A stretch of DNA of 64,000 bases from Acidobacteriota bacterium (GTDB taxonomy: Bacteria > Acidobacteriota > UBA6911 > RPQK01 > JAJDTT01). Where the stretch lies: positions 3,712,001-3,776,000 of the forward strand of contig CBDCJH010000002.1 in the NCBI GenBank assembly GCA_965217775.1. Direction: 5' to 3'. The notes beneath the pieces were generated by a model, which did not search any database, was not told the DNA's origin, and was given only the letters and a program-made list of their open reading frames with translations. The position numbers and the translations under genes were made by a program. The first letter of the stretch is position 1. Every line of letters begins with the position of its first letter. Shown in pieces: positions 1,837 through 4,741 of the stretch.

Positions 1837-3261
1837 TCAAGACCGTACGCCGATAGGCAAAAGCTCCACGCCTTCCCCCTCCTCGGGTTTCTTGATGCGA
1901 AACCGCACCGAGGTCACCTCCGATCCATGGGGCCCGAATCGGTTCTTGAAGCCTTCCCGCTGGCCGACCATGAAGATGGAGCCGTCCTCCAGCACGCAGG
2001 CGCTGGGGTAGTAGGACTTGGGATCACACTTGAAGCCGCGCCCCGGCGCCGGTTTCACCCAGGTCTTCCCATTGTCGCGGCTGTAGATCACCTCACCGTT
2101 GTTCGGCACCTTGGGATCGTCGCCGCTGAGTCTGTGGCGGCCCCCAAAGACGACGGCGGTGACTCCGTCGGGCGTCGCCACCACGTCCCCCCGCCGGTAC
2201 AGTTTGGGGCCGAGAAGCTCGCTTCCAAAGTTGGGATCTTCGATGACCGGGTCGGTCAGGAGCAGACGCGGCGGGGACCAGGTCCTTCCGTCGTCGTAGG
2301 ACTGATACCAGGCCGACGTCGGCCGGCAGGGAAAACCGAGGCTGCCGTCCGGCAAGTAGGCAACTGTGCCTTCGTCCATATCGTAGTCATTGCTTCCGAT
2401 CACCGACACGGTCGACCAGGTGCCGCCCTTGTTCTCGGAGCGCATCAGGAGCATGAGCCAACGGGGGTGTTCGCTGGGCCAGCCCTTTCCCCCGGGAATG
2501 GGTGCGGCGGAGGCGAAGAGTTGCAGCGAGCCGTCCCTGCCCTCGAACATGCTGTAGGGAGCATCCATGTCGGCGAGCCCGACGAAGCGTGTCACCTCCT
2601 TCCAGGTGTGGCCACTGTCGTCGCTTCGAAAGATCAGGGTCTTCGATTGCCGGTTGACCGCAATTCGGGCGTACTCGAGGGCATTCATGGGCATCTGGTT
2701 GAAGTAGCCCCAATGGGGTTTCAGCCGGGCTCCCGCAATCATCGTCCCGTCACTCAGTTGCACCACGTCACCGACGTAGTAGGCGCCGGGCACCACCGGA
2801 AACGAGCGGGGCCGGCTCCAGGTCTTCCCCTGGTCCCGGCTGCGGATCCACATCATCCTTCCGCCCTCGGGCGCATCCCAATCCCCGAGCCATTTTCGAT
2901 CCGGCCGTAACAAGCGCTGCCGGGCCTCCGGAGGCATGTCCCAGGGGGTGGGCCAGGAAGCGTGCCAATAGCCGGCCGAGAAGGTCACGAAAAGATCGCC
3001 ATTCTGCAGCCGGCACACCGTCGGCCACCCGCAATAACCGCCGAACCCGCGGAAGGGCTCCGGCGGGTTGACGTCGGGAGAAACGATGATCTTTCGGTAC
3101 TTCTCGAAATCCACCCGGGGCTCGTCGCCCGTAATCAAGGCCATGACAGGTGGAATAGAAGCCGCGGCGGACTTCTTCTTGCCTGCTCCGGCGAGACCGG
3201 TGGTTGCCAATGCGGCTGCTGAAGTGGACAGAACATCCCGGCGGGTCAATTGGACGGCCAT
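1837..3261 (-). CDS. Tat-exported BNR/Asp-box (sialidase-like) beta-propeller protein
   Basis: Start ATG at 3261 after a GAGGAGG RBS; twin-arginine signal (LTRRDVL); repeated Asp-boxes SRDQGKTW, SDDSGHTW, SENKGGTW, SYDDGRTW, SRDNGKTW. Confidence 0.8.
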   Translation of the reverse strand: MAVQLTRRDVLSTSAAALATTGLAGAGKKKSAAASIPPVMALITGDEPRVDFEKYRKIIVSPDVNPPEPFRGFGGYCGWPTVCRLQNGDLFVTFSAGYWHASWPTPWDMPPEARQRLLRPDRKWLGDWDAPEGGRMMWIRSRDQGKTWSRPRSFPVVPGAYYVGDVVQLSDGTMIAGARLKPHWGYFNQMPMNALEYARIAVNRQSKTLIFRSDDSGHTWKEVTRFVGLADMDAPYSMFEGRDGSLQLFASAAPIPGGKGWPSEHPRWLMLLMRSENKGGTWSTVSVIGSNDYDMDEGTVAYLPDGSLGFPCRPTSAWYQSYDDGRTWSPPRLLLTDPVIEDPNFGSELLGPKLYRRGDVVATPDGVTAVVFGGRHRLSGDDPKVPNNGEVIYSRDNGKTWVKPAPGRGFKCDPKSYYPSACVLEDGSIFMVGQREGFKNRFGPHGSEVTSVRFRIKKPEEGEGVELLPIGVRS

Positions 3262-3353
3262 TTCTTCGCCTCCTCGCTGTGTCGAACGGAAACAATAAGG
3301 GCTTATATACTTGACTAGCCAAGACGTCACACAAGTGTTCGACAATTCTCACC

Positions 3354-4535
3354 ATGAAAGCTCGCGCCACTATCCAGTGCAGAGCCAAGCTGTCCAAGGG
3401 CGGAATCCGGCGGTTGGACTGGGTGAGGTCCATCCTGAATCGGCTGTACAACGCTGCACTGGAGGAACGCAGGACGGCCTGGGAGTCCGAGCAGCGCGGC
3501 GTGACCCTGTACGATCAGATGAAGGGGTTGACCTCCCAGAGGAAGGACGATCCGGAGGGGCTCGGGTCCGTGGCGGTCAAGGCGGAGCGTGGGATGTTGA
3601 TACGGTTGGACCGGGCCTTCAAGGCGTTCTTCCGTCGCTGCAAGGCGGGGGAGAAGCCGGGGTATCCTCGGTTCCGGGCCATTGCCAGGATGGAGACCAT
3701 CGACGTCGTCGACCCGAAGGCGACCCTGGTGAAGAAGCGGGCTCGAGGCTACGCCATCCGGCCCAAGGGCTTCCCGACGATCCGGATCTTTCCGTCCCGG
3801 CCGTTGCCGCACGGATGTCCGTTGAAGGTGTTGCGGATCGTCCGCAAGCCGAACCGGGTGTATGTGGACCTGACCTACGAGGTGGAGAAGCAGCCGCTAC
3901 CGAAGTGCGGGTCTTCGGTGGGGATCGACCTGGGAGTCCGCAAACGGGCGGTGCTGTCCACGGGTGAGAGGATCGAACGGAATCGACGGGACTGGGGAGA
4001 GATCCGAAAGCAGCAGCGAAAGGTGTCCCGGTGCCAGCGCGGGTCGAACCGGCGCCGGAAGCGGGTTCGACGGTTGGCGGCGATTCGGTTCCGGGAGGGA
4101 GTCCGAAGCCGGAACGCGTGTCACCGGGCCACGACCCGGATCGTCCGTGAGCACGGACGGATCGCCGTCGAGAAACTGAACATCCAGGGGATGACCACGA
4201 AGGGCCGGAACAAGAAGGGTCTGAATCGGGAGATCCTCACCCAATCCTGGGGACTTCTCCGCAACCAGCTCCAGCACAAGGCAGAGTGGGCCGGTCGGGA
4301 GTTCGTGGAAGTCAACGCGGCATACACGTCGCAGGACTGCCACCGGTGTGGCGCCAGGAACCAACCTGGGAGAAGCGAGACGTATCGCTGCGCTTCCTGC
4401 GGACTCAAAATGGATCGCGACCACAACGCCGCGATCAACATTCTCAGGGCTGGGGTTTCCGCCCTGGGCGCCGGAACGTGGGGCAGTGGCCCGAGCGTGG
4501 CGCCGGAACTGTGTACTGGAAGGCCCGGTGGCTAG
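3354..4535 (+). CDS. tnpB: RNA-guided endonuclease TnpB (IS200/IS605 OrfB family)
   Basis: N-terminal LYNAALEERR...GEKPGYPRF; RuvC-I GIDLG, RuvC-II IAVEKL, zinc finger CHRC...CASC, RuvC-III DRDHNAAINIL; all three catalytic acidic residues present. Confidence 0.95.
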   Translation: MKARATIQCRAKLSKGGIRRLDWVRSILNRLYNAALEERRTAWESEQRGVTLYDQMKGLTSQRKDDPEGLGSVAVKAERGMLIRLDRAFKAFFRRCKAGEKPGYPRFRAIARMETIDVVDPKATLVKKRARGYAIRPKGFPTIRIFPSRPLPHGCPLKVLRIVRKPNRVYVDLTYEVEKQPLPKCGSSVGIDLGVRKRAVLSTGERIERNRRDWGEIRKQQRKVSRCQRGSNRRRKRVRRLAAIRFREGVRSRNACHRATTRIVREHGRIAVEKLNIQGMTTKGRNKKGLNREILTQSWGLLRNQLQHKAEWAGREFVEVNAAYTSQDCHRCGARNQPGRSETYRCASCGLKMDRDHNAAINILRAGVSALGAGTWGSGPSVAPELCTGRPGG

Positions 4536-4552
4536 CCAAGTATATAAGCCCC
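4443..4552 (+). ncRNA. Putative TnpB omegaRNA scaffold overlapping the tnpB 3' end and the right TIR
   Basis: Nested stems just after the NAAINIL codons: GGGC/GCCC (4447-4464); GGCGCC/GGCGCC with ACG/CGT and GGGC/GCCC (4467-4504) followed by GAA; terminal hairpin 4512-4544. The location matches known TnpB omegaRNAs; boundaries are inferred. Confidence 0.6.
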
Positions 4553-4741
4553 AAACAATACGACCGAGCCCGACAAGGTCTCCGGTCCAAGACTTGTCTT
4601 TTATCGCATATCAGGATCCCCGCCTCTATCGGAGCGGTACAGCCAAGGCCTGATGACGGAAACGGAGGTGAGGGTCGGAGCCCGGAAATCACCGATGCAC
4701 CGGGAAGTCAATGTGGATTCGGAGGCGACTCTGGACCGGAT

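Follow-up and report, generated by a model that had tools for sequence, protein, structure and literature searches.

The 64,000-nt window contains a 1255-bp element (3298-4552) whose single gene is tnpB. An inverted repeat search pairs 3299-3321 with 4529-4551 (23 nt, 96% complementary), and adding the terminal base to these 23-nt terminal inverted repeats (TIRs) places the element ends at 3298 and 4552. An identical 8-mer, the target-site duplication (TSD), adjoins both ends. The element and its borders comprise the following features.

3289, plus strand: G 5' of the left TSD, candidate last TAM base, from insertions compared across lineages
3290-3297, no strand: left TSD copy, AAACAATA, the same 8-mer as at 4553-4560
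3298-3321, plus strand: left TIR, IS1595 type, which pairs with the right TIR and resembles the TIR of an IS1595 element in genome G190
3354-4535, plus strand: tnpB, 393 aa, with RuvC residues D192/E273/D356 and a CxxC...CxxC motif, from profile matches and alignment A1
4529-4552, plus strand: right TIR, inside which lie the tnpB stop codon and the 3' sides of stem 3 and of the pseudoknot

The tnpB product carries the Pfam OrfB_IS605 and Cas12f1-like_TNB domains and exceeds the cut-offs of the TnpB profiles: 211.5 bits against 100 for NF040570 (guided_TnpB), 88.6 against 26.3 for PF07282 and 63.7 against 30.5 for PF01385. D192 and E273 are invariant among the 25 homologues of alignment A1, and D354/D356 and the cysteines C329, C332, C346 and C349 are at least 90% conserved; all are present in the window protein. 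We take the D/E/D columns to be the RuvC catalytic motifs. A 391-aa ORF is retained in 10 of the 12 full-length paralogs, and the keeping of ORFs together with the conserved catalytic D/E/D and zinc-finger cysteines suggests that the element family is active. The TnpBs of TIR-type elements all lie on one side of a tree branch with support 100/99. As the original prediction stated, the tnpB stop codon (TAG, 4533-4535) falls inside the right TIR (4529-4551), and 110 nt separate the NAAINI codons, which end at 4442, from the element end. Scans revealed no sigma-70-like promoter on the plus strand and no terminator after the element.

Eleven of the 12 full-length paralogs in the same genome are flanked by an 8-bp duplication of their own, distinct from the others, and the sister genome G200 is empty at this site, where the 8-mer is present once, AAACAATT. 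The TSD of the window element is therefore real. TSD sequence varies from insertion to insertion, both among the paralogs and among the 33 insertions that could be delimited, while positions 2 and 7 are W (A or T) in 33/33 each. In the passages concerned of a 2026 review (PMC13565253), IS200/IS605 elements of the IS1341 group are defined by the lack of TIRs or a TSD, by subterminal hairpins and by insertion 3' of a fixed tetra- or pentanucleotide. The window element, by contrast, has a 23-nt TIR, belongs to a family with variable 8-bp TSDs and has a corresponding empty site. The absence of a canonical TCAC-type right end had been noticed from the letters and is borne out: no end of this type is found at the window element, although its canonical relatives do have one.

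The same genome also holds five copies of a 1762-bp insertion sequence with the TIR GGGGATTATATACGAAAGTGCC and 8-bp TSDs, whose transposase is of the IS1595 family (NF033547, 177.2 bits, cut-off 75). The TIR of the paralog subfamily is identical to that of the 1762-bp insertion sequence at 21/22 positions, and the TIR of the window copy is identical to that of the G190 IS1595 element, which likewise encodes an NF033547 transposase, at 19/22 and 22/26. The left end of the TnpB element corresponds to the transposase-proximal IS1595 end. Motif-anchored delimitation yielded 22 of 72 IS1595 loci; the TSD measures 8 bp in these 22 autonomous copies as well as in the 33 TnpB elements, and the two sets share one A/T profile, with a preference for A/T at TSD positions 2, 3, 6 and 7. 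An 8-bp TSD is typical of IS1595-family elements in ISfinder. Searches with tblastn found an IS1595 transposase in none of 177 TnpB loci, and none of five cargo-carrying IS1595 elements held tnpB. The element is non-autonomous, since it has no transposase of its own, and on sequence grounds it is a non-autonomous derivative of the IS1595-family DDE insertion sequences, with which it shares both TIR type and TSD type. An IS1595 element with the TIR subtype of the window copy itself was not found in the same genome, and this copy may thus be immobile now. The original prediction did not mention an IS1595 origin of the TIRs and TSD.

The last part of tnpB, together with the right TIR, is predicted to encode an omegaRNA, arranged as follows.

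4437-4552, plus strand: 116-nt scaffold of the predicted omegaRNA, beginning at the NAAINI codons and reaching the final element base, from covariance model R1
4445-4466, plus strand: stem-loop 1, arms 4445-4450/4461-4466, loop 4451-4460 (covariation helix 1)
4452-4458, plus strand: 5' strand of the pseudoknot, GGGGUUU, in the stem-1 loop, which pairs with 4546-4552
4467-4504, plus strand: stem 2, 4467-4472/4499-4504, 4476-4478/4496-4498 and 4481-4484/4489-4492 (helices 3-5)
4505-4511, plus strand: single-stranded linker GGAACUG (consensus AGAAnnG), from alignment A2
4512-4544, plus strand: stem 3, with 4512-4519 pairing with TIR 4536-4544, and an apical GGCC 4522-4525/GGCU 4530-4533
4546-4552, plus strand: 3' strand of the pseudoknot, AAGCCCC, the TIR terminus, from covariation in the model alignment
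4553-4572, plus strand: predicted guide, the right TSD copy (4553-4560) and about 8-12 nt of host flank, both length and first base being putative

Relatives were gathered by local alignment and a TSD-anchored search, which replaced a TIR finder with 11-nt seeds that had missed many loci. Three loci (L028, L039, L098) that had no terminal symmetry or were of the canonical type were dropped before counting. A first covariance-model search drew on 100 sources and weakly matched the canonical IS605-type loci L066, L075, L085, L089 and L119; loci of this type were excluded from the second search, which covered 42 of those sources together with L003, L015 and L016. L037 and L099 were supplied to the second search and were not found at E <= 1. 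A metagenome scan returned mostly distant relatives (at most 41% identity), of which only L102 and L103 were used for RNA analysis. The automated picker of stem 1 chose the wrong hairpin in L041, L042, L046, L047, L069 and L099, where there are extra hairpins or competing helices, and for this reason we relied on the covariance-model alignment.

Model R1 matches the window at 4437-4560 with 111 bits (E 1e-28). A search of Rfam with window positions 3200-4700 at E up to 10 gave no omegaRNA family, only a chance miRNA match. Across the alignment, 87.1% of the nested structure is paired, versus 35-50% with slid partners, and 16 pairs are changed on both sides versus 5.9 in shuffles (0/500 as high). 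Folded as a single sequence, the window copy has a z of -1.89, and 7/200 shuffles fold as well. The signal extends over each of the stems. Stem-loop 1 is 83.3% paired, with three of its six pairs changed on both sides (CAGGGC/GCCCUG versus GGCGGC/GCCGCC). Helices 3-5 of stem 2 are 85.6%, 86.7% and 94.2% paired, with seven pairs changed on both sides, and the stem at 4467-4504 that had been read from the letters is thereby supported. Linker columns 69-72 and 75 of alignment A2 are invariant or nearly so. The basal 6 bp of stem 3 (helix 6, 4512-4517/4539-4544) are 95.2% paired, with four of six pairs changed on both sides. Two further pairings proposed at the outset, TGTACTGG (4512-4519) with CC-A-AGTATA (4536-4544) and GGCC (4522-4525) with GGCT (4530-4533), both occur in the minimum-free-energy fold of the window copy; covariation extends to the basal 6 bp of the former, and the apical part of stem 3 is seen in that fold only.

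The last bases of the TIR lie in the pseudoknot. It was counted on an alignment from a covariance model built without the pseudoknot. In this alignment 85.2% of its cells are paired, 32 cells are changed on both sides versus 15.2 +/- 4.3 in shuffles (0/500 as high), and the covariation score is 0.188 versus 0.097 (0/500 as high). Two other measures give no excess over shuffles: pairs changed on both sides (2 versus 2.2, 424/500 as high) and further pair types (5 versus 6.8, 500/500 as high). At position 4, 20 rows have G-C and 16 have A-U; at position 5 the counts are 13 for A-U, 12 for U-G and 4 for C-G. The covariation spans four phyla, with the loop/terminus classes GGGGUU/AAGCCCC, GGGAAU/AUUCCC, GGGACU/AGUCCC and GGGGAU/AUCCCC, which partly track clades, so that rows are not independent. 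L037, whose pairing was assigned by the stem-1 picker alone, combines a different TIR with AGACGAU/AUCGUCU. A seventh pair holds in only 10/32 cells, and sliding the pseudoknot by -1 still leaves 78% paired because of the runs of G and C. Loop and terminus pair poorly in L033, L035, L036 (2575-2659), L062 and L055. Permutation over the TIR set gives a small effect (helix 5.69 versus 5.20, 2/2000), and among canonical relatives the mean loop-to-terminus helix is 5 versus 4.05 in shuffles (0/2000). The last element base is C in 44/44 rows of alignment A4.

In ISDra2, five guide-flanking nucleotides are described as paired with the apical loop of stem-loop 1 (passages of PMC10711439). The predicted pairing of the stem-1 loop with the TIR terminus is the canonical TnpB pseudoknot, placed where the known one flanks the guide. 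The original prediction had reached for a similar contact with a different partner, pairing AGCCC (4547-4551) with GGGCT (4447-4451); GGGC, however, belongs to the 5' arm of stem 1, and the partner that covaries is the loop at 4452-4458.

The stem-1 loop is also identical to the 6-7 nt with which the left TIR begins, and the complementarity might be taken for a DNA feature, a short internal duplicate of the TIR tip with a function for the transposase, in which case constraint on TIR-tip-like motifs would mimic covariation. We consider this very unlikely. A stretch of 6-7 nt is far below the 22-26-nt TIR common to transposase ends, and the motif always sits in the apical loop of a hairpin homologous to canonical TnpB stem-loop 1. 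Canonical TnpB RNAs, which have no TIR, pair this loop with the unrelated terminus GUUGUC, and the U-G wobble in 12 cells at position 5 is sensible in RNA only. Returning to the RNA reading, TIR bases supply the 3' sides of both stem 3 and the pseudoknot in the predicted scaffold, which thus appears to use the right TIR as a structural part. The earlier claim that the scaffold includes the right TIR and co-evolved with it is supported by a predicted RNA structure that reaches the last element base, 4552.

Sequence likeness among the 12 paralogs ceases exactly at the TIR terminus. Because the pseudoknot reaches this terminus, and flanks the guide in known TnpB RNAs, the guide by analogy most likely starts at the TSD. 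TnpB RNAs end in a guide of about 16 nt. This matches the guide of TSD plus host flank originally proposed (AAACAATACGACC...), with a structure that ends at 4552 and the empty allele in G200 as the predicted target; as also foreseen, the empty site matches the guide in full and the filled left junction over only 8 nt. A start within the TIR, with sibling element ends as targets, had been offered as an alternative. The TIR is common to all copies and would provide many targets, but its terminal bases are occupied by stem 3 and the pseudoknot, the element would target itself, and the variable region begins right after the TIR, as in other TnpB loci; such a guide seems to us barely credible.

The boundary could also lie further downstream, as has been suggested for the RNAs of Fanzor1 and Fanzor2*: the TSD copy would be scaffold or spacer, the left copy would be the TAM or part of it, and the guide would start after the TSD. 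The relevant passages of Yoon et al. 2023 (PMC10711439) describe reRNAs that reach about 15 nt past the TSD, and predict both TIR and TSD in the scaffold, in eukaryotic TIR/TSD transposons; the A/T pattern of the TSD here (W at 2 and 7, 33/33) could likewise be a motif. Autonomous IS1595 TSDs show the same pattern, however, which points to transposase preference. The TSD differs at every insertion, so that a role as a fixed structural part of the scaffold is unlikely, and the pseudoknot ends on the last TIR base with zero spare nucleotides. A TAM within the TSD would leave the filled right junction with both TAM and target, exposing the element to self-cutting, and the one-sided G at -1 would go unexplained. 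Taken together, we judge this boundary improbable.

A guide that starts at the TSD would place the TAM upstream of it. The original prediction named AACGG as the candidate and suggested comparing the bases 5' of the left TSD across insertions. One base proved conserved: the last G, at -1, is present in 32/33 delimited insertions from Acidobacteriota, Chloroflexota and Pseudomonadota with several TIR subtypes, and also in the empty site of G200, while positions -2 to -6 are mixed. The bias is one-sided, with C at +9 in only 9/33. As a control we used autonomous IS1595 copies in matching orientation, under the stricter assignment of orientation, where G occupies -1 in 12/22 against a background G of 0.28; the difference from 32/33 is significant (Fisher p = 1.8e-4). 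The near-invariant G is a TAM-like signature and a candidate TAM.

Part of this signal is probably transposase preference, since G already seems to be favoured in autonomous IS1595 copies that share the TIR type. The RNA model could then be right while the G reflects the choice of target by the IS1595 transposase at the transposase-proximal end, or some other selection, and the TAM lies elsewhere; a TAM of one base is, moreover, unusual for TnpB. Besides the excess over the autonomous copies and the one-sidedness, this explanation is opposed by the persistence of G across three phyla and different TIR subtypes, and by the equivalent position of the right junction, which is non-G at every TIR terminus, as self-avoidance would require. 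We think it unlikely that the G has no part in the TAM.

Expression was approached through assembled metatranscriptome contigs from two runs. These belong to sibling copies 93-97% alike, not to the window copy, and continue through the right TIR into the flanks of those copies, by 8 and 52 nt; being contigs with neither strand nor ends, in which DNA carry-over is possible, they give a weak hint of RNA expression.

We propose that the locus is probably an IS1595-type transposon with tnpB, in which the scaffold ends at the TIR terminus, the TSD and flank form the guide, and the empty site is cut. The tnpB gene would occupy the place of the transposase gene, and an IS1595-family DDE transposase would mobilise the element in trans by recognising its TIRs, making 8-bp A/T-rich TSDs. 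The scaffold, encoded by the end of tnpB together with the right TIR, would consist of stem-loop 1, bipartite stem 2, a conserved AGAA-type linker and stem 3, with the middle of the TIR as the 3' arm of stem 3 and a 6-bp pseudoknot between the stem-1 loop and the last TIR bases; this structure is supported by covariation. A transcript through the TIR would carry as guide the right TSD copy and adjoining host DNA, presumably beginning with the first TSD base, though a need for two linker bases could shift the start to base 3. Such a guide would match the empty site in full and direct its cutting if the required upstream base or bases are present. At the filled site, the right junction would be spared because the TIR ends in C at the position that needs G, and the left one because it matches over only 8 nt. 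The homing and retention logic of IS605 would in this way be transferred to a TSD-forming transposon.

The homing of TnpB is understood from work on IS605 and IS607, where excision is scarless and there is no TSD. Yoon et al. 2023 (PMC10711439, in the passage concerned) asked why bacterial TnpBs seem limited to IS605/IS607 while Fanzors entered many transposons with TIRs and TSDs. Together with its relatives, the locus offers a sequence-based view of a bacterial TnpB RNA residing in the end of a DDE transposon: the transposase-constrained TIR tip would become the 3' strand of the pseudoknot, with the loop following it, and the TSD the first part of the guide, while a single flanking G may tell the empty from the filled site. 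More tentatively, and with rather less than even confidence, we suggest a single capture of one TnpB clade (Acidobacteriota, Chloroflexota, Binatia, Pseudomonadota; many sponge-associated) by IS1595-type DDE transposons, after which the stem-1 loop was retuned to the TIR tip of the partner, keeping the obligatory pseudoknot, with a minimal TAM (G, or G-A-W across the TSD border) outside or astride the TSD. If true, the clade would set a prokaryotic precedent for the way in which Fanzors adapted to transposons with TIRs and TSDs, and would supply compact nucleases that a TAM hardly constrains. The natural loop/TIR pairs form a set for engineering, and should the TAM prove to be that short, such nucleases of 390 aa would be of interest for genome editing.

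The known systems share different parts of this arrangement. IS200/IS605 TnpBs (ISDra2 type; IS1341-group solo TnpBs) are alike in protein family, intact RuvC triad and zinc finger, in a scaffold that overlaps the tnpB 3' end with three stem-loops and a pseudoknot between loop 1 and the guide flank, and in a guide taken from DNA past the right end, with the implied logic of cutting the empty and sparing the filled site. The window element differs in having 23-nt TIRs and an 8-bp TSD in place of subterminal hairpin ends or ...TCAC, and in its partner transposase, which is DDE (IS1595 family) rather than the Y1 HUH TnpA. Here the TIR supplies the 3' sides of both the pseudoknot and stem 3, the guide would open with the 8 nt of the TSD, and the candidate TAM precedes that duplication. 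The IS1595 insertion sequences are alike in TIR (21/22, 19/22), 8-bp TSD and A/T at TSD positions 2, 3, 6 and 7. In place of their transposase gene the window element has a tnpB oriented the same way. Its two TIRs disagree at position 5, the right one doubles as part of the RNA, and the base at -1 is almost always G.

DDE-linked TnpBs, and Fanzor guide RNAs that contain TIRs, are already published. In the passages concerned, Altae-Tran et al. 2023 (PNAS, PMC10691335) report such DDE-linked TnpBs in elements bounded by inverted terminal repeats, with the tnpB 3' end within 250 bp of the transposon end, and solo TnpBs that share ends with transposase-bearing elements, implying mobilisation in trans. 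The DDE partners named there include IS630, and those in the 2026 review (PMC13565253) ISL2, IS630 and IS1031; IS1595 is absent from the main text of both as far as these sources were available to us, and their supplements may list it. The RNA structure, the pairing of the pseudoknot with the TIR and the flank analysis given here are absent from those passages of PMC10691335. The Fanzor1 and Fanzor2* reRNAs (passages of Yoon et al. 2023, PMC10711439; Saito et al. 2023, PMC10432273) are alike in belonging to a TnpB-family nuclease on non-autonomous elements of the cut-and-paste type, with TIR bases in the scaffold. They are eukaryotic or viral, and their short, largely fixed TSDs are counted as scaffold and TAM, whereas the host of the window element is bacterial and its TSD is 8 bp long and variable. 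Fanzor1 has lost the pseudoknot; in the IS1595-type element it would have been kept by a loop that matches the TIR tip.

The element is 1255 bp long. Its features and the neighbouring gene are as follows (window coordinates).

3298-4552: the element
3299-3321 and 4529-4551: inverted repeat, 23 nt, 96% complementary
3290-3297 and 4553-4560: direct repeat AAACAATA, flanking the element on both sides
3354-4535: tnpB, 393 aa, the sole long gene of the element
1837-3261 (-): gene with product MAVQLTRRDVL... (twin-arginine-like signal)

The TnpB protein matches Pfam OrfB_IS605 and Cas12f1-like_TNB as well as the NCBIfam model guided_TnpB (211.5 bits, cut-off 100), and its RuvC D/E/D residues and four zinc-finger cysteines are conserved across 25 homologues. 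As noted in the original prediction, the tnpB stop codon (4533-4535) lies within the right terminal inverted repeat (TIR), and 110 nt run from the NAAINI codons to the element end. The orthologous site in the sister genome G200 is empty and holds the 8-mer once only (...gtcgaacgg AAACAATT cgaccgagccc...); the 8-bp repeat is a genuine target-site duplication (TSD). The insertion is located upstream of the minus-strand gene, some 30 bp from its start codon (3262-3297 between), and thus parts this gene from whatever DNA preceded it in the empty arrangement of G200. The genome carrying the window (G000; 6.43 Mb, 2 contigs) harbours approximately 12 more full-length paralogs with 81-88% identity, plus fragments. 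The full-length paralogs form a subfamily whose inner TIR differs from that of the window copy; 11 of the 12 have their own, differing 8-bp duplication, and 10 retain an intact 391-aa ORF. One paralog, near 4647536 of contig C2, is interrupted (element of 1406 bp vs 1244), and the sequence at the break, ending ...TTTTGCCACGGGCTGATATAC, recurs twice elsewhere in the genome (near 112046 and 1287263) and may be another small mobile element.

A search of G000 with the TIR tip revealed a second element family, with five 1762-bp copies, the TIR GGGGATTATATACGAAAGTGCC and 8-bp TSDs. The copies are located on contig C2:

312985-314744: IS1595-family copy
445385-447146: IS1595-family copy (locus L019, 501-2262)
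803163-804924: IS1595-family copy
836929-838690: IS1595-family copy
1567488-1569249: IS1595-family copy

Their transposase, of 316-334 aa, is a DDE enzyme of the IS1595 family (NF033547, 177.2 bits; cut-off 75). Each copy has about 700 bp of extra DNA, in which a 146-aa open frame lies on the strand of the transposase gene. In related IS1595 elements of five other genomes (G170, G190, G186, G015 and G112), cargo of 1.6-3 kb separates the transposase gene from the far TIR. The left TIR of the TnpB paralog subfamily is identical to GGGGATTATATACGAAAGTGCC at 21 of 22 positions. The TIR of the window copy (inner part CTTGACTAGCCAAG) resembles IS1595 of related genomes, with 19/22 and 22/26 matches to the G190 element, and the TIR-tip search found no IS1595 of this TIR subtype in G000. 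By subterminal similarity the left end of the TnpB element corresponds to the transposase-proximal end of IS1595, so that tnpB occupies the place of the transposase gene in identical orientation. The element is almost certainly derived from IS1595. No IS1595 transposase is present in any of the 177 TnpB loci, each taken with ~1.5 kb of flank, which makes the elements non-autonomous, with mobilisation presumably in trans.

The RNA scaffold was examined in an alignment of 15 non-redundant 3' regions, extending from the NAAINI codons through 8 nt beyond the element end. The tested structure comprises the following parts.

4445-4450 / 4461-4466: stem 1
4467-4472 / 4499-4504, 4476-4478 / 4496-4498, 4481-4484 / 4489-4492: stem 2, bipartite
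between stem 2 and stem 3: conserved AGAA-type linker
4512-4517 / 4539-4544: stem 3, its 3' arm being the middle of the right TIR
4452-4458 / 4546-4552: pseudoknot

In this alignment 87.1% of cells are paired, against 35-50% after sliding the 3' partners, and 16 pairs show changes on both sides where shuffled alignments give 5.9 (0/500 as high). The single-sequence fold of the window RNA yields the same three stems, with z = -1.89 only, and contains both the TGTACTGG/CC-A-AGTATA and the GGCC/GGCU pairings proposed at the outset. The proposed pairing of AGCCC with GGGCU, by contrast, is replaced by that of AAGCCCC with the stem-1 loop GGGGUUU. The idea that the scaffold co-evolved with the TIR is largely borne out: the 3' arm of stem 3 and one strand of the pseudoknot consist of TIR bases.

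To keep the alignment from being fitted to the pseudoknot idea, the covariance model was built from the nested helices alone; it was run on 100 sources and then on 42 TIR-type sources, giving a 44-row alignment for the pseudoknot counts.

Pseudoknot counts in the 44-row alignment, with shuffled values and shuffles as high.
Cells paired: 85.2%; shuffled 77.6%; 0/500
Cells changed on both sides: 32; shuffled 15.2 +/- 4.3; 0/500
Covariation score: 0.188; shuffled 0.097; 0/500
Pairs changed on both sides: 2; shuffled 2.2; 424/500 (shuffles not beaten)
Further pair types: 5; shuffled 6.8; 500/500 (shuffles not beaten)

At position 4 the pair is G-C in 20 rows and A-U in 16, with 4 rows unpaired; at position 5 it is A-U in 13, U-G in 12 and C-G in 4, with 9 unpaired. 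Support for the seventh pair is weak (10/32 cells). Sliding the pseudoknot by -1 still leaves 78% paired because of G and C runs, pairing is poor in L033, L035, L036 (2575-2659), L062 and L055, and the loop and terminus classes follow clades in part. Loop and terminus nevertheless switch jointly among close relatives (GGGAAU/AUUCCC in L040, GGGGUA/AAGCCCC in L038 and L045), and in L037, which has an unrelated TIR (AGACGATTTCA...), the loop AGACGAU faces the terminus AUCGUCU. In canonical relatives the loop pairs with their own ...GUUGUCAC terminus (mean helix 5 vs 4.05 shuffled, 0/2000). Covariation thus makes a pseudoknot between the TIR tip and the stem-1 loop very probable, and the predicted scaffold ends at the final TIR base. 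In ISDra2, five guide-flanking nucleotides are described as forming the pseudoknot with the stem-loop 1 apical loop, and compensatory mutation in an IS607 TnpB revealed that the pseudoknot is required there (Yoon et al. 2023, PMC10711439).

Similarity among paralogs ends precisely at the TIR terminus, as expected if the variable guide begins after the TIR. The predicted guide of the window copy, AAACAATA followed by CGACCGAG..., differs from the G200 empty site by one base, TSD base 8; the original proposal of a guide made of TSD and host flank is largely right. The guide would probably start at TSD base 1-3. If two linker bases were needed, like the AC found in canonical relatives, it would begin at TSD base 3, and a motif G-A-W would span the border. 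Of 33 independently delimited insertions, 24 have A as TSD base 1, and all 33 have A/T at TSD positions 2 and 7.

Of the bases 5' of the left TSD, one is conserved across insertions: the adjoining base (-1) is G in 32/33, whereas positions -2 to -6 are mixed. Of the AACGG proposed as the target-adjacent motif (TAM), only the final G holds. Just 9/33 have C at the mirror position beyond the right TSD. The single non-G insertion (L054, a Gammaproteobacteria MAG) sits in another IS1595-type TIR, with the left flank ggggattata. Among autonomous IS1595 copies, delimitable at 22 of 72 loci, TSDs display the same A/T profile, but the -1 base in matching orientation is G in only 12/22 (Fisher p = 1.8e-4 vs TnpB elements) and on the other side in 7/22 (p = 1.9e-7). 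The transposase therefore appears to favour G in part at this position, and in TnpB elements the base is near-invariant. At the equivalent position of the right filled junction, the final TIR base is C in 44/44 aligned rows, so a G requirement would let the empty site be told apart from the junction of the element itself. On balance, we lean towards the -1 G as the last base of the TAM.

Among 80 loci from species genomes and 80 from metagenomes, a TIR and 8-bp TSD surround tnpB relatives from Acidobacteriota, Chloroflexota (Caldilineaceae, Dehalococcoidia, SAR202), Binatia, and Alpha- and Gammaproteobacteria. A 49-protein maximum-likelihood tree places 26/26 TIR-type rows together behind one branch (100/99 support), along with L022 (TIR-type, not pre-listed) and L026 (degenerate end), and all 18 canonical IS605-type rows (...TCAC ends) on the opposite side. 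This unrooted tree, with the Binatia loci left out, fits a single capture of tnpB by TIR-type elements. Three loci, L036 (164-266, -), L039 (1226-1323, +) and L059 (368-477, -), have a second omegaRNA-like right end no more than 1.5 kb from the first element, indicating that elements of the TIR type cluster or nest. The right flank of L032 resembles a tRNA gene start (GGGGTAGCTCAGCTGGTTAGAGC...) ~15 nt past the TSD. Many of the TIR-type loci belong to MAGs with isolate names that read like those of marine sponge symbionts; similar TIRs across four phyla of a sponge-type community suggest horizontal spread. Parts of the stretch were found in four sponge metatranscriptome runs, labelled sponge metagenome, in contigs 93-97% alike and hence from sibling copies. 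One contig each in runs X1 and X4 passes through the right TIR and extends into other flanks, by 8 and 52 nt; as contigs show neither ends nor strand and library DNA is possible, this hints only weakly at read-through.

Taken together, the observation behind the original prediction is confirmed, and its interpretation largely stands as to scaffold co-evolution and the guide, but not as to the AGCCC/GGGCU pairing and most of the TAM. We consider the combined model, an IS1595-derived element with a TIR-built scaffold, a guide from the TSD and a G TAM, a likely one. Among papers retrieved for TnpB and IS1595, no title or abstract opening concerns such a link, and literature searches on Fanzor/Merlin and on TnpB pseudoknots with inverted repeats and transposon ends turned up no account of this arrangement, although supplements may list the clade. 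The new features are the IS1595 partner, the TIR-tip pseudoknot with its co-varying loop, the one-base flank signature and the TSD opening the guide. TnpBs associated with DDE transposases and inverted terminal repeats have been reported, with IS630 named in the main text and solo TnpBs held to be probably mobilised in trans (Altae-Tran et al. 2023, PMC10691335); a 2026 review lists ISL2, IS630 and IS1031 (PMC13565253). IS200/IS605 elements are described there as having neither TIRs nor TSDs, so the window element does not belong to that family, although its nuclease and RNA would appear, from their sequences, to work like theirs. Fanzor RNAs, as described, include both TIR and TSD in the scaffold, whereas the window element has a variable TSD and retains the pseudoknot.
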